A stretch of DNA of 64,000 bases, taken from positions 32,001 through 96,000 of IMG/VR virus record IMGVR_UViG_3300043436_002883; one strand, 5' to 3'. This DNA is from a virus. Both the position numbers and the translations under genes were made by a program. This document shows positions 12,058 to 34,696 of this stretch, one piece after another. How positions within the stretch are numbered: the stretch's first letter is position 1; every line of letters starts with the position of its first letter. Below the pieces are notes generated by a model that ran no database searches, was not told the origin of the DNA, and worked only from the letters and a program-made list of their open reading frames with translations.

Positions 12058-12615
12058 TTATTTCTTTTCCGTTAAAAAAGTAGAGTAAGCATATCTTATT
12101 CCACTTGTAACTTCTGCAACACCGTGTCTAATTAAAGCACCATGTATTAACAGATCACCAGATTTTGGTTTAATTTTTAATCCCAATAATGGGTAGTATA
12201 TTTCTCCACCTTCAAACTTATCTGTAAAGTATGCTACAACTCCATATTTTGTAATAGCACATGTGTTGAAGTCATCATTTGAAGTTGCTTCTCCATCTTC
12301 CCCGCAAGTATCTTCGTGCTCGTGCATACTATCTCCAACAAACATTCTGTGGAAAGAAGAGTTTGCAGTAGCTACATAGCCAGGAGATACGAGATCATTT
12401 ACTCTGCTATTTATATCAAGAAGTTCTGGGATAGCAATGCTTACCTTTCCGTTGTACCAATCTAGTGGGCTATTTGCTTCATTCCATTGTGGCTCAGTAA
12501 GTCCGTTAGCAATGTTCTCTAAAGAAACGCACTCCTCTTCATTTAAAAAGTTTTCATACACCCAGATATCGTCATATATTTTTTTAACGTTAGGATTGTT
12601 GTCAAAATTAAGCAT
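12058..12615 (-). CDS. 2OG-Fe(II) oxygenase, prolyl-4-hydroxylase-like
   Basis: HED...YF.D.FEGGEI.YP...KPKSGDL...HGV..VTSG.RY. Confidence 0.9.
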   Translation of the reverse strand: MLNFDNNPNVKKIYDDIWVYENFLNEEECVSLENIANGLTEPQWNEANSPLDWYNGKVSIAIPELLDINSRVNDLVSPGYVATANSSFHRMFVGDSMHEHEDTCGEDGEATSNDDFNTCAITKYGVVAYFTDKFEGGEIYYPLLGLKIKPKSGDLLIHGALIRHGVAEVTSGIRYAYSTFLTEKK

Positions 12616-15357: not shown

Positions 15358-15444
15358 CGCTTCCACTTTTAATTATTCTTTGGTAGAATAGGATCTTCAC
15401 ACTAAATCAAATTAACCGCTAGGCGGAGAAACAGGTAATTTTAA

Positions 15445-17379: not shown

Positions 17380-17447
17380 TGGTAGAATATGAGTATTGGG
17401 TATTAACCCAAAATTCTGGGCACCCCGCCCAAAATGGAGATGATAAA

Positions 17448-17690
17448 ATGGCTATCAAAAAATTTGATAAGGCTGACTTGAACAAAGATGGGAAAGTAAC
17501 AATGCAAGAACAAATTTTAGCAGCAATTGGAACATACGGAAGAGCATTTTTGGCAGCAGCCACAGCTCTATACATGACTGGAAATACAAATCCAAAGGAT
17601 TTGATTGCAGCTGGCGTAGCAGCAATTGCTCCAGTAATTCTAAAGGCATTAAGCCCAAGCAACAAAGAATTTGGATTTACAAGCAAGTAA
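17448..17690 (+). CDS. holin-like membrane protein with N-terminal EF-hand loop
   Basis: GGAG RBS before ATG 17448; DLNKDGKVTMQE; two hydrophobic segments resembling r1t-type holins. Confidence 0.65.
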   Translation: MAIKKFDKADLNKDGKVTMQEQILAAIGTYGRAFLAAATALYMTGNTNPKDLIAAGVAAIAPVILKALSPSNKEFGFTSK

Positions 17691-17705
17691 TTTAATTATT
17701 ACTGT

Positions 17706-17747
17706 TAGGATAGCTCCTGTGCTAAAATAAGCATAGGAGTTTTCCTA
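17706..17747 (+). terminator. long hairpin with an extended -10 (TGCTAAAAT) at its apex
   Basis: TAGGATAGCTCCTGTGCT-AAAATA-AGCATAGGAGTTTTCCTA. Confidence 0.5.
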
Positions 17748-17764
17748 TTTAGGAGTACTATAAA

Positions 17765-18112
17765 ATGGCAGGGCAAAAGAATTTCGAAGTGGATCAAAAT
17801 GCCACATTTTCATTTATTGTTGAATACAAAGACGATAATGGGCTACCTATTGACCTAACAGGCTCAACAGCAAAAATGCAGGTAAGAGATACAAAAGGTG
17901 GAACTAAATTAGCTTTTAGTTTAACTTCACCATCAGGCGGAATCACAATAACCCCACTACTTGGCAAGTTAACTATTAAAATGACTCCAACACAAACCAA
18001 TAAACTATTCTATCCAAAATCATCATATGACATTATGCTGACAGATTCAAACGCAAATAAAATTAAATTGCTAGAGGGCTTTATGACACTTAGCAGATCG
18101 GTGACAATATAA
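17765..18112 (+). CDS. virion structural protein (Ig-like, BppU-N-like)
   Basis: DQ.ATF...PIDLTG.TAKMQVR...YDI...LLEG pattern. Confidence 0.7.
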   Translation: MAGQKNFEVDQNATFSFIVEYKDDNGLPIDLTGSTAKMQVRDTKGGTKLAFSLTSPSGGITITPLLGKLTIKMTPTQTNKLFYPKSSYDIMLTDSNANKIKLLEGFMTLSRSVTI

Positions 18113-18549
18113 TGGTAGAGACAATTGTTGTAACAGTTCCAAGCAACGAAGTTGTAGTTTCTACTCCTGGCCCCCAAGGCCCAAGAGGAAAAAGCATACT
18201 TAATGGAGTAGGTGCTCCTGCAGAAAATTTTGGTCTTGAAGGAGATTTTTACTATGATAAAAATACAACAAGATTCTATGGGCCAAAGCCAACAGATCTA
18301 ACTTGGGCAGGAGCAACAAATTACCTTTTAAACATGACTTTAGAGTACTCTTGGGAACTTACACAAGTTACTGGACCAGTATCTGGAGTATATTCTGTAG
18401 AAATTAATCATAATTTAGGCATGAAGCCAAACGTTACAATTAAATCAAGCGCAGGCGACGTTTTAGAAACAGGAATAGATTATAATAGTAGTAACAAAAT
18501 AACACTGACAATGGCTCAACCATTCTCAGGGACAGCGTACCTGTCTTAA
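18112..18549 (+). CDS. fibre-associated protein with short collagen motif
   Basis: GPQGPRG, G.GAP...GDFY, HNLG.KP. Confidence 0.7.
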   Translation: MVETIVVTVPSNEVVVSTPGPQGPRGKSILNGVGAPAENFGLEGDFYYDKNTTRFYGPKPTDLTWAGATNYLLNMTLEYSWELTQVTGPVSGVYSVEINHNLGMKPNVTIKSSAGDVLETGIDYNSSNKITLTMAQPFSGTAYLS

Positions 18550-18561
18550 GGGAGTTAGCAA

Positions 18562-19983
18562 ATGGCAAGAAAATTTTTAGTTAGCGTTGATCTCAATAAG
18601 AATGAGCTTCTCAATGCCAGAATCCAAAACCTCGGAGCTGCACCATCTAGCCCAGTAACTGGACAAATTTACTATGACAGCGGCAACAATGTCATGTACT
18701 ACTACAATGGATTACCTTCACCAAATGGTCCATGGATGCCAATGTCTGGCTCTACAGAAGTTATCCAAGATGTTATTGGGTCTTCAGTATTAGGTGGAAA
18801 TGTTTTAACAGCGACATACGATGACACCGCTGGAACAACAACAATTGATTTAGACAATACAGCAGTAACAGCTGGATCTTATGGTTCAACAACAGCAATT
18901 CCAACATTTACAGTAGACGCACAAGGTCGTTTAACTGCTGCAAGTACAGTAAGCGTAGCAACAGCTCTTTCAATTGCTGCAGAATCTGGAACAGCAGACA
19001 CAGTAGACCTTCTAACAGATACACTAACCTTTGCCGCAGGCGAAGGAATTAATACAGATGTTACAAACAACACAATTACAATTTCTGGAGAAGATGCCTC
19101 TACAAGCAATAAGGGTATTGCGTCATTTAATTCAGATGATTTTAATACAACAGATGGACATGTAGAGCTAGAGGATACAGTTGTTAAAACAGTTACAACA
19201 GACTCTGGAGCTCTTACTCCATCATCACACGGCCTCTCTATTCTTGGCGGAGAAGGAATTGATGTAACGCATTCTGGAACATCAATTACAGTGGCTGGAG
19301 AAGATGCAAGTACAACTAATAAGGGTGTGGCTTCATTCTCAACAGATGACTTTACAGTAACATCTGGTGCAGTAACAATCAAGAATGTGAATCTTGCTAC
19401 ACAGACAACTGGAAATTATATTGCAACAATTGCTGGAACAGAAAATGAAGTTACAGTTTCAGGATCTGGAACAGAAAATTCAGCAGTAACAATTGGACTT
19501 CCAGACGATGTATCAATTACTAACAACTTAACAGTTGGCGGAAACCTAACAGTTAATGGTACAGTAACTGCGGTAAATACAGAAACAACAACATTAAATG
19601 ATAATATTATTGTTTTAAATAACAATGAAACAGGTACTCCGTCCCAAAACGCAGGACTTGAAGTAGAACGTGGAACATCTGCTAATGTTTCAATAGTATG
19701 GAATGAATCTTCAGATCAATGGACACTTACAAATGATGGTACAAACTATCATGAAGTAGTACGTAAGTGGAAATCTAATATTACTACAACCACTGAAGCC
19801 CCTTACACATTTGCGGCAGAGCATAATCTTGGAACACGTGATGTAACGGTTGCAGTTTATTCAAACTCTACTCCATATTCCGAGGTTGAGGTAGATGTTG
19901 ATCATACATCAGATACTACAGTTACACTAACATTTGCAATCGCACCAACAGCTGGAGCATATAGAGTAGTAATTACAGGATAA
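18562..19983 (+). CDS. fibre/decoration structural protein
   Basis: Thr/Ser-rich; repeated GEDAST.NKG.ASF..DDF; AGLEVERG; C-terminal HNLGTRDV. Confidence 0.75.
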
Positions 19984-19986
19984 AGT

Positions 19987-20403
19987 ATGACAAAAAAATT
20001 CTTAACGCCTATAGCACCACCAGCGCTTACTGAAGATCCATCTGTAGGAATAACTGGAGCTATTTACTATAATAGTTTAACTGGAAAGTTAAAGATTTAT
20101 TCTGGTACGGCTTGGGAAAATGTTTCTACAGGAGTTTCAGTATTATCGGGACCACCATCTAATCCAGATTTAGGGCAACTTTATTTTGATACATCAGAAA
20201 GTACATTTAAAGGCTACAATGGACAAGTTTGGTATGACGTTGCGGGACCAAAAGAAATTTTGGAGCATACACACAACGCATCAAGTGGTATAGTAGAAGA
20301 AGTAAATTATGGAGAGTATGTTGATGACTCTAGAATTTTTGCAAGTTCAGGCAGTGCTAGTTCAAATTTTATAGGTGATTATATTGACGGAGGTGGTGCA
20401 TAA
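19987..20403 (+). CDS. small fibre protein
   Basis: Two G.IYY/YFD...K.Y.G..W repeats. Confidence 0.7.
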   Translation: MTKKFLTPIAPPALTEDPSVGITGAIYYNSLTGKLKIYSGTAWENVSTGVSVLSGPPSNPDLGQLYFDTSESTFKGYNGQVWYDVAGPKEILEHTHNASSGIVEEVNYGEYVDDSRIFASSGSASSNFIGDYIDGGGA

Positions 20404-23400
20404 TGGCAATTAGAATTCAATTACGCAGAGACACAGCAGCAAATTGGACTTCAGCAAATCCTGTTTTAAGAGCAGGAGAATTTGGTGTTGAAACAGATAC
20501 ACTTAAGGTAAAGGTAGGTAATGGCACCAGTACATGGACACAAATATCTAGCTACCTAAATATTACACCCGCACAACTAGCAACAACAGTTACAGCAGTA
20601 AATGCTTATACAGATGCAGCAGTAGCATCTTTAGGAAATACTGCATCAACCACTTATGTTCCTCTTTCAGATGTTGGAAATATAGATGGCGTTGCCTCAC
20701 TTGATGCCACTGGTAAAATCCCAGATTCACAAATTCCAGCAGGAATAACTAGAGACACAGAGCTATCTTCTGCTATTTCAACAGCAATTAATAATCTTAT
20801 TGATGGTGCGCCAGGCGCATTAGACACACTTAACGAGCTTGCAGCAGCAATTAATGACGATGCATCATATGCATCAACTATAACAACAGCCCTTGGTTTA
20901 AAAGCACCACTGGCCTCACCAGCACTTACTGGAACACCTACTGCACCAACAGCAGCGGCAGACACAAGTACAACTCAAATTGCAACCACAGCTTTTGCTA
21001 AATCCGAAGCAGATGCAGCACAAGCAGCCGCAATCTCTGAAGCAGCAACAGATGCTACAACAAAAGCAAACGCAGCAAAGTCTGGCGCAGAAGCAACAGC
21101 AGCATCTGCACTTTCTTTGCACGAATCAGATACAACAAATATACATGGTATTGCAGATACAGCAGAACTGGCAACCAAAGCATTTGCAGCAGAGCTGCTT
21201 ACAAATGCTACAAAGTCTAATATATCAATTACAGGAGATAAAAACGGACTTACTATTAATGCTGAAAATGGAGTGGCGGACTCTACAACAGACGCCTTAG
21301 CTGAAGGTGGTACAAATAAATACTTTACAGATGATAGAGCACAGGATGCTGTAGCAACCGCTTTAGCAGCTGGTACACATACAAATATTTCAGTATCTTA
21401 TGATGATGTAGCAAATTCAATTTCTTTAACTGGAGCGGTAACATATACAGATGAAAATGCTCAAGATGCAATAGGAAATGCAGTTGGAACAGGCCTTTCT
21501 TATAACGATACAACTGGAGCAATTTCTGTAGACCCTTCAGAATTTGCACTAAATACAGTCGGTGCACCAACTGGCAACGTATCTCTTGCTACCTATAAAA
21601 TCACAAGCCTTGGAACACCAACTGATTCAACAGATGCTGCTACAAAGGCTTACGTTGACTCAGTAACAGAAGGTCTTCATATTCACGAGTCCGTAATTGC
21701 AGCAACAACTACAAATGTTAATCTCGCAAATGCTCTTGAAAACGGTGACACTCTTGACGGAGTAACCCTTGCAACTGGCAACCGAATTCTTGTTAAAAAT
21801 CAGACAACTACATCTGAAAACGGTATTTACGTAGTTCAGGCTTCAGGACAACCAGTACGTGCAGCCGATTTTGATACAGCAGCAGAAGTTGATTCTGGTG
21901 ATTTTGTATTCGTATATTCAGGAACAGCAAATGCTAGCACTGGATGGGTACAAACAAATAAACCAGCAACAATTGGAACGGACCCAATAGTATTTACACA
22001 GTTCTCAGGTGCTGGTACATATCTTGCGGGTAATGGATTAAGCCTTAATGGAAATACATTTAGTATTAATACAGGAACAACTGTAGATTTAAATACAGCT
22101 CAAACTCTTTCAAACAAAACACTGACATCTCCAGTTATAAATGGTGCAACAATTGGTGGAAGCTTAATTCCATCAGCAAATGCCTCATATGACCTTGGAT
22201 CTGCAGCTAACAAGTTTAAAGATCTATATTTGTCTGGAACAACACTTTACCTAGATACAGCATCTATGCAGTTGGATTCTGGAAATATTCAATTTAGTCA
22301 TAGCGGAAATACAACAACAATTCCAGTTGCAAATGGTGCACATACAGTAACAACTCGTGCTGGTATTGAAACTTTAACAAATAAAACTTTAACTGCTCCA
22401 GTTATTAATAATCCAACTGGAATCACAAAATCTGATGTAGGTCTTGCAAATGTTGATAATACTTCAGATGCAAATAAGCCAGTTTCAACTGCTACACAAA
22501 CAGCACTTGACCTTAAGGCACCACTTGCGTCACCAGCACTTAGTGGTGTACCAACTGCCCCAACAGCAGCAGCCAACACAAATACAACTCAAATTGCAAC
22601 AACTGCTTACGTGCAAACAGAGATTGCTGACTTGATTGCAGCTGCTCCTGGAGCACTAGATACTCTTGATGAGTTGGCAGCAGCTCTTGGTGATGACGCA
22701 AACTATGCAGCTACAATAACAACAGCACTTGGTACCAAGGCTCCAATAGCATCACCTACATTTACAGGGACAGTAGTACTTCCAAATAATACAATTACCA
22801 ACGCAATGTTAGCTGGATCAATTGAAAACAACAAGCTTGTAAATTCCTCTATTACAATTAATGGGAACGCAGTATCTTTGGGTGGAACGGTTACGCTGGC
22901 CACTTCTGCAGCAACTGAAAATACTCTTGGAACTGTATACGGAAAGGTAACAACATCTGGTGTTGACAACACATCACTAGGAAGCCTAACTTTACAGAAT
23001 ATAGAAACTGGAACTGAAAATACAGCACTCGGAAATGAATCTTTAAGATCATTAACAGAAGGAAGCAGAAACGCAGTGCTAGGATTCCAGGCTGGTACTT
23101 TAATAACAAGTGGAATAGGAAACGTCCTATTAGGAACTAGCGCAGGAAGCAATTTGGTCGGCGGAAGTAATAACATTATTATCGGTGATGTTGTACAGTC
23201 CACTACAAGTAATACCAGCAACGAAATTATTATTGGAAATAATGCAAGCAACGCATTTAAAATTCCAGGAATAGGTCTTTCAGCATCAGTAGCTAACTAT
23301 ATTATAACAGCAACAGATACACAAAATTTAACCAATAAAACAATAACAGCACCAACAATTAGCAACCCTAACTTTACTGGGCCAATATCTGTTGCAGACC

Positions 23401-23807
23401 CAGTATCTGCAAGTCACGCAGTAAATAAAGCTTACCTTGAAGCAGAAATTGCCGATTCGGTAGGAAGCGATATATATCCTTTAGACTCATTGTCTCAATT
23501 GTTTGATGGATATACTTCAAGATTTAAGCTAAAATTTGATGGAGTAGATTTTATTCCATCAAACCCATATAAGCTTTTTATAACAATTAATGGTATAATT
23601 CAAATATTGGGAAACCAAGATCAGCACTGGCTCAGCGCATTGCCGTCCGAGGGGTACTTTTTAGATAATGATGGATATATTCAGTTCGGGGAACCAATTC
23701 CAGCTGGGTCATCATTTGAGGCAAAGTATATCTCAGGACCAAATACGCAAACAGTTAAAAAATCTAGATATCCGTTCAGAGCAACAGATATATTATTAGG
23801 AGATTAA
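20403..23807 (+). CDS. long fibre protein with Mtd N-terminal domain
   Basis: RIQLRRDTAANW...P.L..GE.G.ETDT.K.K.G.G...W; duplicated APGALDTL.ELAAA/KAPLASP fibre repeats; DAATKAYVD. Confidence 0.85.
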   Translation: MAIRIQLRRDTAANWTSANPVLRAGEFGVETDTLKVKVGNGTSTWTQISSYLNITPAQLATTVTAVNAYTDAAVASLGNTASTTYVPLSDVGNIDGVASLDATGKIPDSQIPAGITRDTELSSAISTAINNLIDGAPGALDTLNELAAAINDDASYASTITTALGLKAPLASPALTGTPTAPTAAADTSTTQIATTAFAKSEADAAQAAAISEAATDATTKANAAKSGAEATAASALSLHESDTTNIHGIADTAELATKAFAAELLTNATKSNISITGDKNGLTINAENGVADSTTDALAEGGTNKYFTDDRAQDAVATALAAGTHTNISVSYDDVANSISLTGAVTYTDENAQDAIGNAVGTGLSYNDTTGAISVDPSEFALNTVGAPTGNVSLATYKITSLGTPTDSTDAATKAYVDSVTEGLHIHESVIAATTTNVNLANALENGDTLDGVTLATGNRILVKNQTTTSENGIYVVQASGQPVRAADFDTAAEVDSGDFVFVYSGTANASTGWVQTNKPATIGTDPIVFTQFSGAGTYLAGNGLSLNGNTFSINTGTTVDLNTAQTLSNKTLTSPVINGATIGGSLIPSANASYDLGSAANKFKDLYLSGTTLYLDTASMQLDSGNIQFSHSGNTTTIPVANGAHTVTTRAGIETLTNKTLTAPVINNPTGITKSDVGLANVDNTSDANKPVSTATQTALDLKAPLASPALSGVPTAPTAAANTNTTQIATTAYVQTEIADLIAAAPGALDTLDELAAALGDDANYAATITTALGTKAPIASPTFTGTVVLPNNTITNAMLAGSIENNKLVNSSITINGNAVSLGGTVTLATSAATENTLGTVYGKVTTSGVDNTSLGSLTLQNIETGTENTALGNESLRSLTEGSRNAVLGFQAGTLITSGIGNVLLGTSAGSNLVGGSNNIIIGDVVQSTTSNTSNEIIIGNNASNAFKIPGIGLSASVANYIITATDTQNLTNKTITAPTISNPNFTGPISVADPVSASHAVNKAYLEAEIADSVGSDIYPLDSLSQLFDGYTSRFKLKFDGVDFIPSNPYKLFITINGIIQILGNQDQHWLSALPSEGYFLDNDGYIQFGEPIPAGSSFEAKYISGPNTQTVKKSRYPFRATDILLGD

Positions 23808-23811
23808 GAAA

Positions 23812-26800
23812 ATGGCAAGAAAAGTATTACTAGAAACGTCTTATACGTTTACCCCATCAACAAGAACTATTTCGATTCCAAAAACAATCTTGAAAGAAAG
23901 ATTGCTTTTGATCACGAACGTAACAACAAATCAGGTTATTTATAATTTTTCAGATCCAAGCTTGGGTTCAACATCATACTCAGCTACTACAAACTCTGCG
24001 ATGGTAGAAAATACAACAATTGTTCTATCATATAACACTGCATCTATGACATCAACAGATAAACTTATGTTTACAATTGATACATTTGATGAAAGCTTTA
24101 CTCCAGCAGAGTCACAGCTAGACCCAGCTAACAAGTTTAGAGTTTCACAACCAAGAGCTCTTATCGACACTGATTTTGAATACGGAACACAGACTTCTAA
24201 GTGGGAAAACCTAGGATTAATTAACAATAGACCATTTTCTTATGCAAGACCAACACCTATTGCTAATATCTCTTCTATTAATCTCCCAACAGGCTCAAAA
24301 ACAGTAACAGTTACACTCAGCTCTGGAACAGCTCCAGCAAACGGAACTCCAGTTACAATCCAAGATTCATTTTTGGCAATTGCAGATGGTAACTTTATTA
24401 TCGAAAACGGCGGTGGAGGATCTAGCTTCACATATACAGCCTCTGCTATTAACAGAACAAGCATTACAGAAATCCTTGATCCAAACAAGACAATAGTTAA
24501 TCAGGGAGTTCTTTTTAGCGGTGCTCAAATTGGCGGAAGTGCATCATTAACTTATTCAGGAAGAAAGATTACAGCAGTAACATCAGTTCCTCACGGACTT
24601 GCCCTAGGAAATGAAATTGTTGTACTTGGAGCTACAGCAACAACTAATCCTCCAAATGGCAATCAAGAAGTTGCTCAGATAATTAACACAACAACATTTG
24701 CATTCTATGTAGATGCAGCACCAACAGGAACAATTGCTGGTGGAATTGCAATTTTTGTAAGACCACAGTCTACATTTGCACATAGACCACATGATGGTGG
24801 TGTTTTGTTTAGTGCTAACTCAGGCTCTAACTATGCACAATGCGTTCGTCAAACACGTCGCTACTTTAGATATCAATCAGGTAAGGGAATTCAGATTTCT
24901 TCAGGAACAGTTCTAAAGCCTTACGCAGGAATTGAAAATATAACATCAAATAACACAGTAGCAGTAACAGTTCAAACAAAAGAAAAGCACAATCTACAAC
25001 CAGGAACAGTTATTAAAATTGGTGGATGTAATGAAGTTGCATACAATGGAACATTTACAATTACGAATGTATTAAGTGCTACAGCTTTCCAATATCAAGC
25101 ACTATCAATTCCTTCAGCCACAGTTGCAACAGGACCATTCTACGCATCAGTAGAATCTTGGTATGGTTGCCAAAATAGACTAGGTGCTTTTGATGAGCAG
25201 AATGGTTTGTTCTGGGAGTACGACGGAACTACACTTTATGCAGTTCGCAGAAGCTCAACTTTCCAGCTATCTGGTAAGGTAACAGTTTCACAAAACTCTG
25301 CAACAATTCTACAATCTAGCGCAGAATTCCCAACATATTTCTCTAAGCAGCTAATCCCAGGAGATAAGATTGTAATCAGAGGACAATCATATAAGGTTGT
25401 TTCAATTGCATCAGATACATCTCTAACAATTAGCCCAGCATACCGTGGAGCAAGTGCTTCAATGTGTATTGTTTCTAGAACAGATGATACAAAAATTGCT
25501 CAAAGCGATTTTAATCTAGATAAGATTGACGGTACAGGGCCTTCTCAGTACAACATTGATCTTGGAAAGATGCAAATGTTCTACATCGACTATACATGGT
25601 ATGGTGCAGGATTCGTAAGATGGGGAGTTAGAGGGCCAAAGGGTAACGTTATTTACGTACACAAGATGCCTAATAACAACGTTAATACAGAAGCCTACAT
25701 GCGCTCTGGTAACCTTCCAGGTAGATATGAAAGCTCAACAAATCCACCTTACACAAAGGCAACTACAGAAATTTTAACAACAGATGCAGCGCTAACAGTT
25801 GCTTCTACAGCTGGATTCCCACCTTCAGGAACACTAGTTATAAGAAACGAAAATACTTATGAGTATGTTAACTACACAGGAAAGTCAGCAACAACATTTA
25901 CTGGACTTACAAGAGGAAAAGCTGGTGTAGAAGCAGGACTAACTGTTACTATAGCAACTGGAACAAGCACTGGAACAGTAGCAAGCGCAACTGGAATTCA
26001 GGTAGGACAAAGAGTTATATCTAATGCCTTCCCTGAAGGAACATTTATTTCTTCAATTACTGGTACATCAGTTCAGTTTAGCAAAGCAGCTTTAACAGAT
26101 AACCCTACTGGAGTAATTATTGCTCCAATGGGAGCCACATCCGCTCAAGCCTTTACATTTGCAGCAACTTCACCAACAATGGTTGAGTTAGCATTCCCAT
26201 CATTCTCAGCATCCATATCACACTGGGGAACATCGGTAATCATGGACGGTAACTTTGATGAAGATAAGTCTCTCGTGTTTACATACGGACAGAGAACTGG
26301 AAACTCTATTCCAGCAGGACAATCAAGAGCACTATTTGCAATCCGTGTAGCACCTTCAGTAGATAATGGTATTGCTGCAGCATTCGGACAAAGAGAACTA
26401 ATTAACCGTATGCAGCTTACACTTAAAGCACTAGATGTTACAACGTCTCTAGCTAACGCTAACCTTCTTGTAACTGCAGTTCTAAATGGAGTTCCATCAA
26501 CAACAAATGCATGGACTAATGCGGTAGGAAACGTAGCAGGAGTAGCAAACTCATCACTAGCACAGATTGTAGATTATCAAGGTAGCTCAACCACTTTATC
26601 TGGTGGAGAAACTACTGCAGGTTTCTTCGTAGGAACTGGAGCTAACTCAATCGATCTGTCAAACGTTAGAGATCTTGGAAACTCAATTGTGGGTGGAGGA
26701 TCAGTAAACTCAAATACAAACATCTACCCAGATGGTCCAGACACACTAACAATTGTTGTTGCAAATCTTGGTTCAACAACAGCTCCAGTGTTCGCAAGAC

Positions 26801-26826
26801 TATCCTGGACTGAGGCACAGGCATAG
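23812..26826 (+). CDS. large virion structural protein
   Basis: 1004 aa; beta-rich with H.L..G..I.I.G repeats; DTDFEYG.Q..KW motif. Confidence 0.7.
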   Translation: MARKVLLETSYTFTPSTRTISIPKTILKERLLLITNVTTNQVIYNFSDPSLGSTSYSATTNSAMVENTTIVLSYNTASMTSTDKLMFTIDTFDESFTPAESQLDPANKFRVSQPRALIDTDFEYGTQTSKWENLGLINNRPFSYARPTPIANISSINLPTGSKTVTVTLSSGTAPANGTPVTIQDSFLAIADGNFIIENGGGGSSFTYTASAINRTSITEILDPNKTIVNQGVLFSGAQIGGSASLTYSGRKITAVTSVPHGLALGNEIVVLGATATTNPPNGNQEVAQIINTTTFAFYVDAAPTGTIAGGIAIFVRPQSTFAHRPHDGGVLFSANSGSNYAQCVRQTRRYFRYQSGKGIQISSGTVLKPYAGIENITSNNTVAVTVQTKEKHNLQPGTVIKIGGCNEVAYNGTFTITNVLSATAFQYQALSIPSATVATGPFYASVESWYGCQNRLGAFDEQNGLFWEYDGTTLYAVRRSSTFQLSGKVTVSQNSATILQSSAEFPTYFSKQLIPGDKIVIRGQSYKVVSIASDTSLTISPAYRGASASMCIVSRTDDTKIAQSDFNLDKIDGTGPSQYNIDLGKMQMFYIDYTWYGAGFVRWGVRGPKGNVIYVHKMPNNNVNTEAYMRSGNLPGRYESSTNPPYTKATTEILTTDAALTVASTAGFPPSGTLVIRNENTYEYVNYTGKSATTFTGLTRGKAGVEAGLTVTIATGTSTGTVASATGIQVGQRVISNAFPEGTFISSITGTSVQFSKAALTDNPTGVIIAPMGATSAQAFTFAATSPTMVELAFPSFSASISHWGTSVIMDGNFDEDKSLVFTYGQRTGNSIPAGQSRALFAIRVAPSVDNGIAAAFGQRELINRMQLTLKALDVTTSLANANLLVTAVLNGVPSTTNAWTNAVGNVAGVANSSLAQIVDYQGSSTTLSGGETTAGFFVGTGANSIDLSNVRDLGNSIVGGGSVNSNTNIYPDGPDTLTIVVANLGSTTAPVFARLSWTEAQA

Positions 26827-26838
26827 GAAAACATAACA

Positions 26839-27339
26839 ATGTCTATTACTAAAGGAAAGTTTCCCTACGAAACAGATTTGCAGGTTAAATCATTATCAGT
26901 TTCTGATAACTGCGGTCTTTCTGGAATAACAACATTTTCTGGAGTAGTAAAGTTAAGTGGAACACTTGACAGCACATTGGGTAATATTCAGTTTATAGAT
27001 GGGGTACAGTCAAAACAAGGTACCCCGTCTATAACACCTATATATACTAAATTTTTTAATTACACATTAAGTAATTTAAATGAAAGAGATTCCATTATCG
27101 ATATGAGAATGACTGTTGCAAATACAGTAACCATTCCAGCAGATACGGTTATCAATTTCCCAGTTGGTACTACTCTTGATATTTTACAAACAGGAGCAGG
27201 ACAAACTACGGTTCAAGCAGGACCTGGTGTAGTATTAAACTTTACTCCAGGACAAAAGTTAAGATTTCAATGGTCAATTGCAACAATATTAAAAAGAGAT
27301 GCCAACACTTGGCTTTTGTTCGGAGACTTGACAGCGTAA
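26839..27339 (+). CDS. small fibre/tip protein
   Basis: TVTIP...FPVGT..DILQ.GAG...W...GDL domain common in phage fibres. Confidence 0.7.
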   Translation: MSITKGKFPYETDLQVKSLSVSDNCGLSGITTFSGVVKLSGTLDSTLGNIQFIDGVQSKQGTPSITPIYTKFFNYTLSNLNERDSIIDMRMTVANTVTIPADTVINFPVGTTLDILQTGAGQTTVQAGPGVVLNFTPGQKLRFQWSIATILKRDANTWLLFGDLTA

Positions 27340-27355: not shown

Positions 27356-29020
27356 ATGGGTAAAAAGACGGGTAGAAAAGCGCAACTTTCTGGAGATTTT
27401 GAATATCCAGTACCACCAATAAATGTAGTTGCAACAGATGTAGGAACAAATAGACCATATAACAATGGGGCTATAAATATTACTTTTGAATACCCAACAG
27501 GCCAATTGCCTATTATAAATTACACTGCAAAGTTTACTCCTAATACTGGATCAGTAACTTATACAGATTTTTCTGCAACATCCCCAATTTTAATTACTGG
27601 AATACCTTCAGGACTAACTGGCTTTGTAACAGTAAATGCAACAAATGTAAATGGAACTTCTCAGGAGTCTACCGCAACCGCCCCTCTTTTAGTTACAACA
27701 GTTCCACAATCACCAAGAACAGTTACAGCAGTATCTAACACTACAGGTCCAGGCCATAGCACAGAAGGTACACAAACCACTACACCAGGACAACGTGGAC
27801 AAGATATTGTTTCATGGGGGCACCCAGCAACTGGTGGAAAAGATATATCAAAATATATAATTACATCTTCAGATTTAACTACACAGCCAGGCGGACTAGC
27901 ATCACCATATGAAGCTAATTTCCCAGCAACATCTATAGCAATTAGAGAGACTATGGCAAGTGCCCAGATATATACAGTAAAAGCAGTAAACGCAAATGGA
28001 ACTTCTTTAGGTTCTGCAACTGGTGAAGTTACAACATTCTTTTCACCACCAGCTTTTTTCTCCCCACCAAACTTCTTTGCGCCACCTAACTTTTTTGCGC
28101 CACCTAACTTTTTTGCGCCACCTAACTTTTTTGCTCCACCAAACTTCTTTGTGCCGCCAAACTTCTTTGCGCCACCACAATTCTTTGCGCCACCAAACTT
28201 CTTCGTGCCGCCACAGTTCTTTGCGCCACCACAGTTCTTTGTGCCACCACTATTTTTTACACCACCAAACTTCTTTACACCTCCACTATTCTTTAGCCCT
28301 CCAAGATTCTTTTCACCTCCAGGGTTCTTTAGCCCTCCAAGATTCTTTTCACCTCCAAGATTTTTTGCACCTCCAGGATTCTTTGGCCCTCCAAGATTCT
28401 TTGGCCCTCCAGGATTCTGTATACCAGCAGATACGGAGGTGCTTACTAAGGACGGATACAAAAAAGCAAAAGATATAAAGATAGATGATATTCTTTTAAC
28501 CGCTTATTTTGATAATTTGCCAGAACATTCTTCTAACTGTGCACAAGGATACATAAGCACAGACTGCATGATTCAAGTTGCTTCATGGAGAGATTCTAAT
28601 TTAATTAATCAAAAAACATTAGAGTCAAAGGTTACAAATATATTCAAGGAAACAAAATCATCAGTTGTAAGAATTAATAACAATCCTAAATATGATTTGT
28701 CATTAGTAGAACAACCTGTGATAAAAAGAGGCAATGAATATATGCTTCCAGAAGCAGCTAACCTAGAAATTGGCGATGAAATATTTAATTACGATAACCC
28801 TTCTGATCCAATAGTTGTTGAGTCCTTGGATCTTGTAGAAAAAGATACAGACGTATTTTTATTCTACAGAGAACCGTGGGGACTTCTTGTGGCAGGATCA
28901 ATGCTTGCATATAATGGATGCGAAACTTACAGCGAGATAGATCCAAATGATGTGGACCCTCATATTGCTGAAAATCCACACAATGAAGAAGAGTCGGACG
29001 CAGAATTTCAGGATAACTAA
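27356..29020 (+). CDS. FN3-like domains + 21x FFxPPx repeat + Hint (intein-like) domain protein
   Basis: Two Y..V.A.N.NG.S-type FN3 ends; hexapeptide repeat 28037-28414; CIPADTEVLT...LVAGSMLAYN Hint signature. Confidence 0.85.
   Translation: MGKKTGRKAQLSGDFEYPVPPINVVATDVGTNRPYNNGAINITFEYPTGQLPIINYTAKFTPNTGSVTYTDFSATSPILITGIPSGLTGFVTVNATNVNGTSQESTATAPLLVTTVPQSPRTVTAVSNTTGPGHSTEGTQTTTPGQRGQDIVSWGHPATGGKDISKYIITSSDLTTQPGGLASPYEANFPATSIAIRETMASAQIYTVKAVNANGTSLGSATGEVTTFFSPPAFFSPPNFFAPPNFFAPPNFFAPPNFFAPPNFFVPPNFFAPPQFFAPPNFFVPPQFFAPPQFFVPPLFFTPPNFFTPPLFFSPPRFFSPPGFFSPPRFFSPPRFFAPPGFFGPPRFFGPPGFCIPADTEVLTKDGYKKAKDIKIDDILLTAYFDNLPEHSSNCAQGYISTDCMIQVASWRDSNLINQKTLESKVTNIFKETKSSVVRINNNPKYDLSLVEQPVIKRGNEYMLPEAANLEIGDEIFNYDNPSDPIVVESLDLVEKDTDVFLFYREPWGLLVAGSMLAYNGCETYSEIDPNDVDPHIAENPHNEEESDAEFQDN
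28037..28414 (+). repeat. 18-bp tandem repeat x21 encoding FF[SAVTG]PP[ANQLRG]
   Basis: Counted in the translation; exactly 378 bp. Confidence 0.95.
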
Positions 29021-29023
29021 TCC

Positions 29024-29052
29024 TTGACTATATTACGCAAAAATGCTATTCT
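29024..29052 (+). promoter_or_regulatory. sigma70-type promoter for oxygenase operon (leaderless)
   Basis: TTGACT-N17-TATTCT, ATG 6 nt later. Confidence 0.65.
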
Positions 29053-29058
29053 TTAATA

Positions 29059-29682
29059 ATGATATACAACAAAAAACAGTTGTACCCTGGGATATGGGTA
29101 TATCCTAATTCTTTTCCAAAAGAACTTGATTTAATTAATCGTATTGAAGATTGCGTATCCAGCAAAGAAACTGACTGGAATAGTGCAACTGTTTGTTTAG
29201 AAGAGACAGATAAAACATACAGGGATGCATGGGACTTTAAGATCTCTGCTCTTGGAAAATCTCACCCACTTTACAAAGATATTTATAATTGCCAAAAAGA
29301 TGCAGTTGAAGATTTTTGCAATATGTATTCAATTAAAATGGATTTTTGGGAATGGACTAATGTAGTTAAATATTACCCTAATCAATTTTTTCAAGAGCAT
29401 GCAGATGACGGGTGGTCATATAAATGTGCCGTATCTTTAGTCGGATATCCAAATGATGGTTATACTGGCGGTGGGCTATATTTTCCTAAATTTAATTTAC
29501 ATATAACACCAGAGATAGGGGATTTAGTTATATTTCCTTCCTCTTTTATATATTCTCACGTAGCTCTTCCAGTTGAGTCAGGAGTCAAGTATTCTTTTGT
29601 TACCATGCTAGACTACAATGATGATGCCCATACCGAAGAATATGATAGAATGATAGATAACAAACACAAGGGGAAAAAATAA
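29059..29682 (+). CDS. 2OG-Fe(II) oxygenase, prolyl-4-hydroxylase-like
   Basis: HAD...Y.ND.Y.GG.L.FP...GDLVIFPS...H...PV.SG.KY. Confidence 0.9.
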   Translation: MIYNKKQLYPGIWVYPNSFPKELDLINRIEDCVSSKETDWNSATVCLEETDKTYRDAWDFKISALGKSHPLYKDIYNCQKDAVEDFCNMYSIKMDFWEWTNVVKYYPNQFFQEHADDGWSYKCAVSLVGYPNDGYTGGGLYFPKFNLHITPEIGDLVIFPSSFIYSHVALPVESGVKYSFVTMLDYNDDAHTEEYDRMIDNKHKGKK

Positions 29683-29683
29683 T

Positions 29684-30424
29684 ATGCTTCCAAATGCAGA
29701 AACTATATATCCAGGAATTATTGTATACAGAGACGTCTTTAAAAAAGAGTACAATCTGGCAGAAAGACTAGAAAAGGTTTTAGAAAAACAAGAAAGCAAG
29801 AAGCACTGGAACCTGGCTCAAACAGGCTTTGATACACTAAATACAGATTATCGTGATGCCTGGGATTTTAAAATTAAAGAAAATGACGGCGGATCCCTAA
29901 TGTATGGCAATGGAAATCATGTTCAGCAAGAAGATCTTACAGAGGATGAAATAGAGCTAAGACAGATATGGAGAGACTCAAAAGGAGTACAGCTTAACGC
30001 TGTAGCAGATTACATGAAAATGTTTCAGCTTCCACCCTTAAACTATTGGGAATCTTTTAACTTTATTAAGTATGCAAAAAATCAACACTTTAATGTCCAT
30101 TCAGATCACGGATATTCATATGTGTGTGTGCTTTCATCAGTAGGTTATATTAACGACGACTACGAAGGCGGAGAGTTGTTTTTCGATAAGCTTGGCTTAA
30201 AGATTAAACCTAAAGCTGGAGATCTATATCTTTTTCCTTCTTCTTATATTTATTCTCATGCAGCAATGCCAGTAAAATCTGGAACTAAATATGCAATTGT
30301 TACAATGTTAGATTATCAAGAGGCTCCACACACACCTCTTTATAGAGAAATAGAGGCAGGCTATGAATATAACCATTTTACCGAAGGTAAAAAATTTATC
30401 CCAGCAGAACAAAGGGATAATTAA
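29684..30424 (+). CDS. 2OG-Fe(II) oxygenase, prolyl-4-hydroxylase-like
   Basis: HSD...YINDDYEGGEL...H..MPV.SG.KY; paralog of preceding gene (YRDAWDFKI). Confidence 0.9.
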   Translation: MLPNAETIYPGIIVYRDVFKKEYNLAERLEKVLEKQESKKHWNLAQTGFDTLNTDYRDAWDFKIKENDGGSLMYGNGNHVQQEDLTEDEIELRQIWRDSKGVQLNAVADYMKMFQLPPLNYWESFNFIKYAKNQHFNVHSDHGYSYVCVLSSVGYINDDYEGGELFFDKLGLKIKPKAGDLYLFPSSYIYSHAAMPVKSGTKYAIVTMLDYQEAPHTPLYREIEAGYEYNHFTEGKKFIPAEQRDN

Positions 30425-31138
30425 TTGATTAAGGTAACAGCATATGATAATTTGCAAGATACAGCTAACATAGAGCCACTCTCTGCAAAAAGAGATTGGA
30501 TGGACCAGACGGAGCATAATCATGCATACAGGTGCTTTCCACTAACTCTAGCAAATCAATTAGGCTGGGGAATATCTTTTCCAGAAGATATAACTTTTAT
30601 GTGGGATGGAGTAACAAGTACCTATCCACATAATGTTCAGGTTTTACAAGGACAAAAATACTGCGAAACTGGTAGAGGTCACTCAACAATTAATTTTAAA
30701 ACAAATCTAACTTTTGAAACAGAAAGTAATTACACATTGCTATCTTTCCCAGTTCCAAATATGTTTGTTGATGGAGCCCAGGCCGTAACAAGCTTACTAA
30801 CAACATCTTTTTTTGGTAGCCCATTGCCAGTTGCATGGAAGATTACAAAGCCATACGTTCCAATCACAATCAAAGCTGGACAACCAGTAATTGCAATTTT
30901 GCCAATATCTTTAACAGAGCTAAACAACTCTACTCTTGAAGTAAAGGATATAAGGCATATGCCACAGCCACACTTTGAGAATGTTCCAACTTATGAAGGA
31001 GCAGTTGCTGCAGCTAAAGAGGCGGCAGAAAAACAAATTTGGACAGACTACTATAGAGATGCCACAGACTATCTAGGAAATAAACTAGGATCTCATGAAG
31101 TAAAATCAATTAAGCTGAAAGTCAATAAATACAAATGA
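30425..31138 (+). CDS. DUF6065-like accessory protein
   Basis: RDWMD...HAYRCFPL..AN..GW motif; TTG start. Confidence 0.6.
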   Translation: MIKVTAYDNLQDTANIEPLSAKRDWMDQTEHNHAYRCFPLTLANQLGWGISFPEDITFMWDGVTSTYPHNVQVLQGQKYCETGRGHSTINFKTNLTFETESNYTLLSFPVPNMFVDGAQAVTSLLTTSFFGSPLPVAWKITKPYVPITIKAGQPVIAILPISLTELNNSTLEVKDIRHMPQPHFENVPTYEGAVAAAKEAAEKQIWTDYYRDATDYLGNKLGSHEVKSIKLKVNKYK

Positions 31139-31845
31139 AAATTGTTTTTAATTCAAATAGACACTATAACAATAAAGATCTTGTTCCAAGCCCTACAAAA
31201 AATGTTATGCCAGGATGGTTTAAGAATGCTAGCAAGTACTGGAAAGATTTTGAAGGAAATGATGTAGTCGGTCCTCCAGACAATCAAAGAGGCCCAGGCT
31301 TTAAAGCCTGTCCAGCCTTACATGATATTTTTACGACAGGATATATGCTTACAACACCATGCGACATTAATGTTTTTATAAAAGACGGATACACATTAGT
31401 GCAAGCAGAGCCAGGATTTGATGACTTTGTTTCAATTCGTTCGCACATGGGAGAATTTCATTATCCAGAAGGATATTATAAATTTGTTTATCACTGGTAT
31501 CCAAATTGGGGATTTACCCTTCCAGAAGGGTATAGCGCTTTAGTTGTACAGCCTATTAATAATTTTGAGCTGCCTTTTTTAACGGTAGGCGGTATAATTG
31601 ATAGTGATAGGTATGCCCCGCCAGGGCTAATGCCATTTTTTATTAGAGATGGCTTTAAAGGAATTATTCCAAAAGGAACTCCCTATGCACAAATAATTCC
31701 AATCAAAAGAGAAGAATGGAAATCAGAGTTTAATTTGTATACGTATCAAGAAATGCAAAAAAGACACAATGACCATGTGGCCATATATAGAGCAAATACT
31801 GGAGTATATAAAAAAAATACCTGGGTACCCAAGAAATATGAATAG
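31135..31845 (+). CDS. accessory protein, distantly related to preceding gene
   Basis: P.WFK...KACP...D..T.GY...W...LP.GYS...P.N...G.ID.D...KGTP.AQIIP.KRE.W. Confidence 0.6.
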   Translation: MKIVFNSNRHYNNKDLVPSPTKNVMPGWFKNASKYWKDFEGNDVVGPPDNQRGPGFKACPALHDIFTTGYMLTTPCDINVFIKDGYTLVQAEPGFDDFVSIRSHMGEFHYPEGYYKFVYHWYPNWGFTLPEGYSALVVQPINNFELPFLTVGGIIDSDRYAPPGLMPFFIRDGFKGIIPKGTPYAQIIPIKREEWKSEFNLYTYQEMQKRHNDHVAIYRANTGVYKKNTWVPKKYE

Positions 31846-31854
31846 GAAAAATAA

Positions 31855-32538
31855 ATGGAAAACACTGTAGAGAACCCTTCGGATATTAGAAAGCACAGAA
31901 CATCAATCACGCCTTCTGGTTATTTTGGCAATGGTAAAGAAAACATTGTTGAAATAGAGAACTTGTTAACGGAAGAAGAAAACGAATACCTTTTAAATTT
32001 TATTAAAAATAATGAAGTTTGGGATCAGGGCCAAGATGTTAAAAATGAGAATGGAACAATCATCTATCAACACAACGTATGGGCAAACCGTGTTGCAACA
32101 AGAAAATCTTTAGATGAGTCAGATCCAGCTGTTTCAGTAATGCTAGAGTCAATAATTGAAAGACTAAGAGTAATGATTGAAAAGCATTTTAATGTAGAGG
32201 TAAAGCCTACAGGCCCATGCCTTGTTAGATGGCCAGTTGGCTCTATGCAGTGGCCACACGCAGATAAAGAATTGCACGAAGGACCAGATAAGGGAACTGC
32301 AAACAATTTTCCATGGTATGACATTGGGACAGTAATCTATTTAAATGAAGATTACGAAGGTGGTAGATTGCATTTTCCAAAACAAGAAATTGCTTTTAAG
32401 CCAAAAGCTAGAGCGGCATATTTTTTTCCAGGTGATTTAAACTATATACATGGTGTCGATATTATTACAGAAGGAACAAGATACACCTCACCTTGGTTTT
32501 GGACTATAACTAAATTAGGAGAAAAAATAAATGGATAA
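31855..32538 (+). CDS. 2OG-Fe(II) oxygenase
   Basis: HADKE...YLNEDYEGG...HGV..I.EG.RY. Confidence 0.9.
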   Translation: MENTVENPSDIRKHRTSITPSGYFGNGKENIVEIENLLTEEENEYLLNFIKNNEVWDQGQDVKNENGTIIYQHNVWANRVATRKSLDESDPAVSVMLESIIERLRVMIEKHFNVEVKPTGPCLVRWPVGSMQWPHADKELHEGPDKGTANNFPWYDIGTVIYLNEDYEGGRLHFPKQEIAFKPKARAAYFFPGDLNYIHGVDIITEGTRYTSPWFWTITKLGEKING

Positions 32539-33391
32539 TATAGTATCAAAGACCCTGTATCCCAGAATTGAAATTTACAAAGGTTTACTTCCAGATCATA
32601 AGGAAATTTTTGATGTTGTAAAGTCTACAGAAAACATTGAAAAAGATTCAGATGAACATTATTTTGTTCCGTGGACTAGATGGAGCTCCTTTGGCACATA
32701 CTCATCAACAAAATTTAAGGGTGCTATGGATAACCTACGTGGCAAAAATGAAACTTTTGACAAAGAGTATTGGGCTGCAGAAACAGTTTGGGATGCATAT
32801 AATATTGCTCTTGAAGACTACATAAAGAAATATAATGTTGACCTTCCAGAAGGAGCAGAGCTCGGCTCATCATCATTTTGCAAATATTTTACTAACGTAG
32901 ATTCTTTAAAGAATAATTTAACAATGCAGTATCACACAGATTTTAAACAAACAGATAAGGATGCTCCAGGAAATAAATTTTATATAACCTGTACGGTTTA
33001 TATAAATGACGACTATGAAGGCGGAGAAATTGAGTTTTATGTTAATGGAGAATTTGTTCCCGCATACAAGCCAGAGGCAGGAGACATAATGGTATTTCCT
33101 TCTGGAGAAGGATACTATCATGGCGTAAGAACGGCGACTAAAGGAAATAAATATTTAATCAGAAACTTTATGGTTTATCCATATAAGGGGTCTGATGAAT
33201 GGCTAGAAAACCAATTAAAATACGGTGCAACAAAATGGGCTGAAATGGAAAAAAGAAGAATGAGCCTAGATGTATATGGCGGGAACCTAGTATTTGAAAA
33301 TGGAAAACTAAAGGTTCCAACTGAAAAAGAAATACAAGATCATATAGATTATATCGATAGTCTAGAAGATAAAGATAAGACGGAGTGCTAA
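32531..33391 (+). CDS. 2OG-Fe(II) oxygenase
   Basis: HTD...YINDDYEGGEI...HGV....G.KY. Confidence 0.9.
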   Translation: MDNIVSKTLYPRIEIYKGLLPDHKEIFDVVKSTENIEKDSDEHYFVPWTRWSSFGTYSSTKFKGAMDNLRGKNETFDKEYWAAETVWDAYNIALEDYIKKYNVDLPEGAELGSSSFCKYFTNVDSLKNNLTMQYHTDFKQTDKDAPGNKFYITCTVYINDDYEGGEIEFYVNGEFVPAYKPEAGDIMVFPSGEGYYHGVRTATKGNKYLIRNFMVYPYKGSDEWLENQLKYGATKWAEMEKRRMSLDVYGGNLVFENGKLKVPTEKEIQDHIDYIDSLEDKDKTEC

Positions 33392-34101
33392 TGGAAATTG
33401 TATCGCTTAAGGATGATGTTTTTGTTGTTGATGGTTTAATTACAGAAGAAGAATGCCAAAAAATAATTGCTTATTTTGACGCAATTACCGACGCTGGTCA
33501 TTTAAAGTGGAATCAAATTTCTTTTTACGGATCTCTTGCCATGGGCTACTGGCCTTGGGACGATAACCTACTTCTATTTGGCTTGCCTAAAGATTATTTT
33601 TCTATACTAAAAGAAAAAGTTAAACTAGCAGGGGAAACCTGTTTTAACAAAGAGTTATCAGAAGTAAGTTACCACGCACAAAAGTGGGTAATAGGAGCAT
33701 TTGCAGGTTTTCACTCAGATAATACCCATGAAGACGGAAAGCCTTCCGCATTCTATAAAAGTAAATATGCAGGATTCCTTTATCTAAATGATAATTTTGA
33801 TGGAGGGTTTTTAAACTTTAAACATCATGATATTGCAATAAAGCCAAAGCCTGGTAGACTTGCTTTCTTTAAAGGTGGATATGGCAACGAGCATGAAGTC
33901 ACGATGGTTGAAAAGGCAGAAAGATATACAGTGGGATCGTTTTGGGATGATGCTGATGCAGTTTATACACCAGAACAAATAGCTGAGTGGGAAGCCGAAC
34001 TTAAAGAAACAAGAGCAGAACAAGAAAAAACTTACGAAGAGTGGAATGATCTTAAGAAAAGGGGAACTCCACCAACACATAAAGGTAAGTATGATGCTTA
34101 A
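33391..34101 (+). CDS. 2OG-Fe(II) oxygenase
   Basis: HSD...YLNDNFDGG...HEV..V...ERY; start at ATG 33391 (TAATG). Confidence 0.9.
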   Translation: MEIVSLKDDVFVVDGLITEEECQKIIAYFDAITDAGHLKWNQISFYGSLAMGYWPWDDNLLLFGLPKDYFSILKEKVKLAGETCFNKELSEVSYHAQKWVIGAFAGFHSDNTHEDGKPSAFYKSKYAGFLYLNDNFDGGFLNFKHHDIAIKPKPGRLAFFKGGYGNEHEVTMVEKAERYTVGSFWDDADAVYTPEQIAEWEAELKETRAEQEKTYEEWNDLKKRGTPPTHKGKYDA

Positions 34102-34696
34102 AGAAATACTTACTCCAGATATACATTACTATACAGAAGTATTTGACAACCCTGAAGAGTTAATAAAAGAAATTGAATTAATGGATCAATTTCAAGATAT
34201 GGGCTCTCAGATAAGTAAATGGGAGCCATGGAATTCTTCATGCAAAACTGTTCAGTATGGTTATGAAAAAACAATCAATTATAAAAATGTTTTAAATAAT
34301 AATAATAGAGACAGGCATAACTCTAAGTTTGCCAGTATGATTCATTATAGGGCAATACAAATAGCAGAAGAGTACGCTTCGGCACATCAAATAGATTTAG
34401 GGGATCTCCCAACACATTGCAAGATATATAAATATAACAATTCTACAGAAATGGGCCCACATACTGACTGGGATCCAGACTATAGCCCACAGCACTTGAC
34501 AGGCACAGTTTCAATTGTTTTTTACTTAAACGATAATTATCAGGGTGGAGACCTGGCTTTTCCTAATGACAACCTTTCTGTTAAGCCAAAGCCTGGAAGC
34601 GCAGTCGTATTCAAGTCCCATGGAATTTTGCATGAGCCTTTGCCAACAACAGAGGGTACAAAGTATATGGTTGCAATCTTTTTCTTTAGAAAATAA
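34091..34696 (+). CDS. 2OG-Fe(II) oxygenase
   Basis: HTD...YLNDNYQGG...HEP....G.KY. Confidence 0.9.
   Translation: MMLKEILTPDIHYYTEVFDNPEELIKEIELMDQFQDMGSQISKWEPWNSSCKTVQYGYEKTINYKNVLNNNNRDRHNSKFASMIHYRAIQIAEEYASAHQIDLGDLPTHCKIYKYNNSTEMGPHTDWDPDYSPQHLTGTVSIVFYLNDNYQGGDLAFPNDNLSVKPKPGSAVVFKSHGILHEPLPTTEGTKYMVAIFFFRK

Follow-up and report, generated by a model that had tools for sequence, protein, structure and literature searches.

A phage FFxPPx repeat protein as candidate substrate of an adjacent array of prolyl-hydroxylase-like oxygenases

In aquatic phages, multi-copy oxygenases dependent on 2-oxoglutarate (2OG) and Fe(II) rank among the most frequent genes without an explained role; they are usually filed as 'auxiliary metabolic genes'. 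What such enzymes act on is the question raised by a locus of an uncultured lake phage, in which six of them, together with two accessory genes, directly follow the gene for a protein that carries 21 hexapeptide units of the form FFxPPx. The locus lies in a window of 64,000 nucleotides, the whole stretch of DNA that was analysed, corresponding to bases 32001-96000 of an IMG/VR record of 109,282 bp that is rated complete. The comparative evidence set out below suggests that these enzymes, which resemble prolyl 4-hydroxylases (P4H), probably hydroxylate the proline-rich tract of this fibre-associated protein. The genes and domains of the cassette, at positions of the window, are the following.

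27356..29020, + strand: repeat protein precursor, 554 aa, FN3-FN3-(FFxPPx)21-F-Hint-acidic tail
27356..28036, + strand: short basic N-terminus and two fibronectin type III (FN3) domains, aa 1-227 (family profile A6 against the PDB; Pfam fn3)
28037..28414, + strand: FFxPPx repeated 21 times, aa 228-353; candidate substrate tract (Tandem Repeats Finder, residue count)
28418..28915, + strand: Hint domain, similar to bacterial intein-like (BIL) domains, Cys355 to Asn520 (profile, model); an acidic 34-aa tail then runs to 29017
29059..29682, + strand: oxygenase ox1, P4H-like, PF13640
29684..30424, + strand: oxygenase ox2, sister lineage of ox1
30425..31138, + strand: accessory gene acc1, DUF6065 (PF19541), in nearly every array
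31135..31845, + strand: accessory gene acc2, distant DUF6065 paralog (phrog_7084)
31855..32538, + strand: oxygenase ox3, the most conserved lineage, in all array types
32531..33391, + strand: oxygenase ox4
33385..34101, + strand: oxygenase ox5
34046..34696, + strand: oxygenase ox6; 56-nt overlap with ox5, which a later ATG, possibly the true start, would shorten

The original prediction, made on this window, had described the first protein as FN3-like domains, 21 hexapeptides and a Hint domain joined through one Phe, and this architecture proved correct to the residue. The tract comprises exactly 21 FFxPPx units in a single register (42 Phe and 42 Pro), followed by F354 and C355, and Tandem Repeats Finder detected an 18-nt period over it. 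Two open reading frames across the tract, 27661-28461 (-, 266 aa) and 28023-28478 (+, 151 aa), read Gly-Gly-x-Lys-Asn-like units and are antisense or frame by-products of the 18-nt period, not genes. As a single sequence, the full repeat protein had no match in Pfam, PHROGs, the PDB or, by tblastn, isolated phages, and the FN3 part of the window copy alone fell below detection in Pfam. Its identity comes from the family: Pfam fn3 was matched by 27 of 35 relatives, the family profile found the FN3 pairs of titin, fibronectin and neogenin in the PDB, and at this level both tandem copies qualify as FN3. The family was surveyed in IMG/VR with a degenerate nucleotide motif covering three FFxPPx units, which returned at least 118 viral contig stretches; family counts here and below are among the matches listed. 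The commonest layout has ~200 N-terminal residues, 3-35 units and a ~170-residue C-terminal domain, and the commonest unit is FF[A/S]PPG. Across the family F-F is as invariant as P-P, and 531 of 1035 units (51%) carry Gly at position 6, so that they end in Pro-Pro-Gly. In the window 5 of the 21 units end in Gly, and most end in Asn, Gly, Arg or Gln. Pro-Pro-Gly is the classical target of collagen P4H, and its presence in 51% of the family units is one detail in favour of prolyl hydroxylation.

The enzymes themselves point in the same direction. Five of the six exceed the 27-bit cut-off of PF13640; for ox3 the score is 26.7 bits when run by itself and 28.1 bits in a genome scan. All six carry the iron triad HxD...H, whose H, D and H are invariant across 55 homologs, so the predicted set of six 2OG-Fe(II) oxygenases with an intact motif is borne out by both the profile matches and the motif check. 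Each enzyme also contains H-x10-[K/R]-Y, which places a basic residue ~10 positions past the distal His, as expected for binding the C5 carboxylate of 2OG. This position aligns with the Lys of a G-E-K-W stretch in the P4H of Bacillus anthracis, which we take to be the 2OG ligand there. The best solved relatives of the enzyme profile are B. anthracis P4H (6e-16), prolyl 3-hydroxylase 1 (P3H1), PiuC-type hydroxylases, the P4H of chlorovirus PBCV-1 (5c5t, 1.9e-9), PHD2 and Chlamydomonas P4H. By these profile relationships the six enzymes belong to the branch of protein prolyl and lysyl hydroxylases, not to the AlkB or TET types. In the tree, the ox4 and ox5 clades each had 99% support, as did 9 of 10 ox3 rows, and ox1 and ox2 were jointly supported at 95%; judged from these sequences, the six paralog lineages are older than the divergence of these phages. 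Structure co-prediction of an ox3 alignment with tract residues 216-275 gave a score of 0.00 and, run without control pairs, says nothing either way.

A check put forward with the original prediction was whether repeat and oxygenases also co-occur and adjoin in other phages. Counting was restricted to loci found via the repeat alone and having at least 2 kb of downstream sequence. Oxygenases lie directly downstream of the repeat gene in 38 of 38 FN3-type and 11 of 11 short-type loci, so the expected adjacency is confirmed. The gene order, repeat gene-ox1-(ox2)-DUF6065-(acc2)-ox3-ox4/ox5-ox6, persists at 30-65% identity. Arrays follow FN3 proteins with a Hint domain, FN3 proteins without one, and a small non-FN3 protein ending in FK. 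Since three repeat-protein architectures are all accompanied by arrays, it is the tract, and not FN3 or Hint, that is the common element. In complete genomes with the cassette, the count is 8-13 for PF13640 genes and one or two for FFxPPx genes. Where tract genes stand away from arrays, their records still carry oxygenases, and two closely examined records have arrays of six and five genes.

The family varies considerably around the tract. The Hint domain is missing from 51 of 99 non-redundant family proteins. Some of the other forms end 3-25 residues past the tract; others are small non-FN3 proteins of about 110-140 aa that end in F-K or Cys-rich tails, or fibre-like proteins of 500-900 aa with the tract at the C-terminus. 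Long tract proteins were seen at L067, L072, L073, L077, L088, L096 and L101, and small Cys-rich, knot-like ones at L028, L038, L057 and L063; the tract behaves as a portable C-terminal module on several proteins per genome. In short-protein loci an opposite-strand ox3-type gene lies directly downstream of the repeat, followed by an ox2-type gene, DUF6065 and one further oxygenase. Compact variants of the array occur at eight loci (L032, L036, L037, L041, L059, L074, L076 and L098).

The genes immediately upstream in the window are these.

20403..23807, + strand: tail fibre protein, 1134 aa, with Mtd_N at the N-terminus (Pfam Mtd_N 1.4e-16; tail-fibre PHROGs, e.g. phrog_454 2e-47)
23812..26826, + strand: virion structural protein, 1004 aa (phrog_5838, E=0)
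26839..27339, + strand: 166-aa protein (g166), like the C-terminal end of tail-fibre or minor tail proteins (homology)

With a 1134-aa tail fibre, a 1004-aa structural protein and a 166-aa fibre-end-like protein as neighbours, the repeat gene occupies the usual place of fibre accessory genes. Position and domain content bear on a second possibility raised in the original prediction, namely that the repeat protein is a multi-core precursor of the kind known from ribosomally synthesised and post-translationally modified peptides (RiPPs), whose tract would be cut into modified, diffusible hexapeptides. Identical short units in tandem beside tailoring enzymes do resemble such precursors, and relatives encode FFxPPx proteins as small as about 110-140 aa. 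The pair of FN3 domains and the place in the fibre module, however, indicate a structural protein, and the same tract terminates fibre-like proteins of 700-800 aa. Searches of the cassette against Pfam and PHROGs found no protease, cyclase or RiPP recognition element (RRE) family, the unit number ranges from 3 to 35, and there is no cleavage motif between units. We therefore regard a RiPP-like precursor as highly improbable.

If arrays were equally frequent in relatives lacking the repeat, the proposed link between the two would fail. We chose relatives by their portal (81-97% identity, n=80, all keeping the g590-g113-portal synteny). The whole cassette, including the upstream 166-aa gene, is present in 6 of the 80, and it is wholly absent from the 31 others that have at least 8 kb of upstream room. 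There it is replaced by Gly-rich or collagen-like (G-x-T) fibre genes without an oxygenase array. Five long cassette-less relatives (66-88% complete) contain 0, 0, 0, 2 and 0 PF13640 genes, with no array and no FFxPPx. Arrays were thus found in neither the 31 portal relatives nor the five long records, so that the proposed link is not refuted. The portal tree needs at least three changes, and repeat and array change jointly in 3 of 3 independent pairs, a number too small to reach significance (p 0.25). Hypervariability marks the DNA from the fibre genes to g590, with replacement genes and no oxygenase at L135, L138, L151, L156, L181, L184, L197 and L203. At 4248-4838 of L198 a single distant oxygenase (31% to ox1) lies upstream of g590, with no FFxPPx gene.

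The fate of the C-terminal domain is the next question. Searched as a single sequence, the window domain found nothing in Pfam, the PDB or a word-indexed protein search, and a single-sequence AlphaFold2 (AF2) model was useless, with a predicted local distance difference test score (pLDDT) of 31. A profile and a second AF2 model were built on an alignment of 51 family C-domains (A1). The profile matched the BIL domain of Clostridium thermocellum (2lwy, E 1.8e-7) and many inteins; among the aligned members, 27 of 51 matched Pfam Intein_splicing and 19 of 51 matched Hint_2. The model of the window domain reached a pLDDT of 85, and its best Foldseek matches, at probability 1.00, were BIL2 of Tetrahymena BUBL1 (6tmm), BIL 2lwy, inteins and hedgehog (1at0/6tyy). 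On profile and model, then, the window protein's C-terminal domain is a Hint fold, closest to BIL domains. The first-residue nucleophile is the sole catalytic feature kept in all 51 domains (43 Cys, 8 Ser; Cys355 in the window). In place of a block-B Thr-x-x-His, the window has S-L-V-E at aa 449-452, with Glu replacing His; the block-B His is found in some clades only, and the clade of the window has Glu. The C-terminal end of this clade is Tyr-Asn-Gly-Cys instead of the His-Asn of inteins, and two clades are without a terminal Asn. In the window protein a 34-aa acidic tail follows, with no C-extein to be spliced, and many relatives terminate 1-5 residues past the Asn. BIL and hedgehog domains cleave mainly at their own N-terminus (PMC7664689). 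By analogy, the active-site layout fits N-terminal cleavage or transfer of the BIL/hedgehog type, not splicing, and self-cleavage of the window protein is plausible on sequence and model. The autoprocessing that had been predicted from the Hint domain is thus upheld as to fold and conserved Cys1, while the replacement of the block-B His by Glu and of His-Asn by Tyr-Asn leaves its activity in doubt. Hint-less homologs end right after the tract and so directly encode the expected cleavage product, which is indirect support for removal of the Hint domain. A mention of 'Hint' for phage phiCbK refers to a terminase intein.

The two accessory genes that had been noticed inside the array are both of the DUF6065 type: in Pfam and PHROGs, acc1 is DUF6065 itself and acc2 a distant paralog matching phrog_7084. 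A DUF6065 profile found nothing credible in the PDB, hhalign gave no detectable kinship with the oxygenase profile (probability 0.07), the ESM Atlas has no model for acc1 or acc2, and a literature search found no mention of DUF6065. The DUF6065 clusters of the ESM Atlas are mostly viral. A profile search of cellular-genome contigs with DUF6065 gave four contigs only (L206-L209), all of the same phage family and binned into metagenome-assembled genomes (MAGs). These bins are Bacteroidota (Bacteroidia, Lishizhenia, Chitinophagaceae; GC 32-36%), and the portal is ~60% identical to portals of Streptomyces phages. With MAG bins that are Bacteroidota and a portal that resembles that of Streptomyces phages, the clues to the host of the phage disagree. 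The Pfam model of DUF6065 also has a match above its cut-off in Caulobacter vibrioides, which shows that cellular members of the family exist.

Taken together, we propose that the precursor would be made in the host cytoplasm late in infection, where the oxygenases would hydroxylate its tract, most probably at prolines. The six paralog lineages would probably contribute different regio- or stereochemistries or act sequentially, with the DUF6065 pair as obligatory partners. The Hint domain would form a thioester at Phe354-Cys355, which hydrolysis, or transfer to some nucleophile, would then resolve. The product would be FN3-FN3-tract ending in Phe, the form that Hint-less homologs encode directly, and the mature oxidised tract, displayed on or beside the tail fibre, would serve there as a stalk or an adhesive.

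The suggestion that the repeat is the substrate is a prediction from comparative genomics, strengthened by three architectures, by joint gain and loss and by the prolyl hydroxylase relatives. Several observations weigh against this proposal. Since the repeat adjoins the array, a block transfer moves both, and joint gain or loss cannot split functional from physical linkage. In 59 of 60 FN3-type loci with room, the gene directly upstream of the repeat encodes a g166-like fibre C-terminal domain; as this domain always accompanies the cassette, co-occurrence alone cannot single out the repeat as substrate. The predicted copy-number correlation came out positive, but the relation of enzyme number to the number of prolines (rho 0.59, n=33) includes no correction for relatedness and is driven largely by one short-protein class. 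Oxygenases also lie away from any FFxPPx gene in these genomes, DUF6065 has no recognisable fold relative, and with Glu at the block-B His position and a Tyr-Asn end, Hint cleavage may be slow, different or absent. Finally, for simple prolyl 4-hydroxylation of a unit with two prolines, six non-redundant enzymes are more than should be necessary, and all six lineages are kept even in phages with nearly uniform FF[AS]PPG units.

The observations on linkage are what the main competing explanation draws on. The oxygenases would target something else, be it a different fibre component (for instance the g166-like domain or the structural protein of 1004 aa), a protein of the host's envelope or cytoplasm, a base in nucleic acid or a small molecule, and the repeat protein would be an unmodified fibre-tip accessory co-inherited in an exchangeable block. 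The distal fibre block of g166-like domain, repeat gene and array is indeed swapped as one unit in a hypervariable region, PF13640 genes also occur away from any repeat gene, and the PHROG labels for this enzyme family are the generic 'auxiliary metabolic'. Against such a passive association, adjacency survives 30-65% identity and three repeat-protein architectures, the nearest solved relatives are protein prolyl and lysyl hydroxylases rather than AlkB or TET, and repeat proteins encoded elsewhere are still in array-bearing records. We consider a different target unlikely, though it is the alternative to be taken most seriously.

The surplus of enzymes bears on what the reaction might be. The original prediction had supposed that ordered changes in the variable residue of the unit could give different paralogs different sites; retention of all six lineages in phages with near-uniform FF[AS]PPG units does not support such specialisation. 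A further alternative keeps the tract as substrate and changes the chemistry: the battery and DUF6065 would carry out Phe beta-hydroxylation or form cross-links or dihydroxyproline, making a rigid or adhesive polymer whose C-terminus is ligated covalently, through the Hint thioester, to a second protein or an envelope component. Six conserved, non-redundant lineages with two partners are more than mono-hydroxylation requires, F-F is invariant like P-P, and the Hint domain is structurally nearest to BIL domains, BIL2 of a Tetrahymena BUBL locus among them. The reaction for which P4H-type enzymes are known, however, is hydroxylation of aliphatic C-H bonds in Pro and Lys, and with 51 of 99 family proteins lacking Hint, ligation cannot be essential; we hold this chemistry to be quite improbable. 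A related and decidedly speculative idea, to which we give a little more weight, is that FFxPPx serves these phages as a portable tag at the C-terminus of various fibre proteins (long fibres, FN3 pairs and small proteins rich in Cys), one that six oxygenases and DUF6065 would turn into a heavily oxidised Pro/Phe polymer beyond 4-hydroxyproline, the Hint forms being joined via the thioester to a virion or host-surface component.

Prolyl hydroxylation of the tract, which we continue to favour, had originally been coupled to possible glycosylation, and a glycosyltransferase and another oxygenase had been pointed out upstream. Both of these genes are present.

14356-15357: glycosyltransferase family 4 (GT4) gene
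12058-12615, - strand: 2OG-oxygenase-like gene
11408-12055, - strand: further 2OG-oxygenase gene

A GT4 homolog occurs in 3 of 5 cassette-less relatives and is missing from 2 of 4 complete cassette-bearing genomes. It does not co-vary with the cassette, and glycosylation of the tract by this enzyme is not supported. The same holds for a promoter of the array's own. The eight genes are packed behind the repeat gene with intergenic gaps of 0-38 nt or overlaps; the 38-nt gap before ox1 contains one weak sigma-70-like match (29024-29052), the region contains 27 promoter-like matches against 37.6 in shuffles, and there is no terminator between the genes. Stray oxygenases in relatives include those at 16495-16767 (-) and 23927-24163 (+) of G000 and a cluster of four at 14991-19268 of G012, a complete relative. 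At 15445-17379 (+) lies a gene for a 644-aa ribonucleotide reductase (RNR)-like protein, matched by the RNR barrel model in short stretches only (class II insertion, alpha domain); judging from these matches, this may be an RNR that has diverged or been rearranged.

The nearest precedent is the P4H of PBCV-1, which hydroxylates that chlorovirus's own Pro-rich repeats (PMC3634087). Both systems pair a virus-encoded P4H-type oxygenase (5c5t in PBCV-1) with virus-encoded Pro-rich tandem repeats, the substrate role of the phage repeat being predicted. PBCV-1, however, infects eukaryotic algae and has a single enzyme and (Pro-Ala-Pro-Lys)n repeats, whereas the phage combines six conserved paralog lineages and a pair of DUF6065 partners with a FFxPPx unit that is aromatic, a strictly adjacent candidate substrate gene and a Hint cap. 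With B. anthracis P4H (3itq, 5hv0) and collagen P4H, which acts on X-Pro-Gly, the phage enzymes share the HxD...H...K motifs, and the commonest unit of the repeat family contains Pro-Pro-Gly. Unlike collagen, the tract has no Gly at every third residue: FFxPPx holds at most one Gly per six residues, only 5 of the 21 window units end in it, and the phage substrate is a predicted one. The C-terminal domain resembles BIL (2lwy, 6tmm) and hedgehog (1at0) domains in its Hint fold, its N-terminal Cys or Ser and its lack of a C-extein to splice, and differs from them in the block-B Glu and Tyr-Asn-Gly-Cys end of the window clade and in its fusion to a phage repeat protein. In plants and algae, hydroxyproline-rich glycoproteins such as extensins and mastigoneme proteins use P4H-hydroxylated Pro-rich repeats to build extracellular filaments; unlike these, the phage tract lacks both a Ser-Pro(n) motif and a linked glycosyltransferase. 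No isolated phage matched the cassette by megablast, and literature searches on phage prolyl hydroxylation, Hint domains in fibres and the FFxPPx repeat found no description.

The short, regular FFxPPG unit and its matched enzymes could serve in making hydroxylated proline-rich materials in bacteria. For the phages themselves, a well-defined oxygenase subfamily now has a specific, genetically linked candidate substrate. If the proposed hydroxylation is true, it would be, to our knowledge, the first case of a bacteriophage structural protein being hydroxylated by enzymes; it would assign a role to DUF6065 and would mean that a Hint/BIL domain is used in maturing a phage fibre component. Should FFxPPx in fact be a portable tag for a more heavily oxidised polymer, these phages would encode an enzyme-matured adhesive or structural material without described counterpart.

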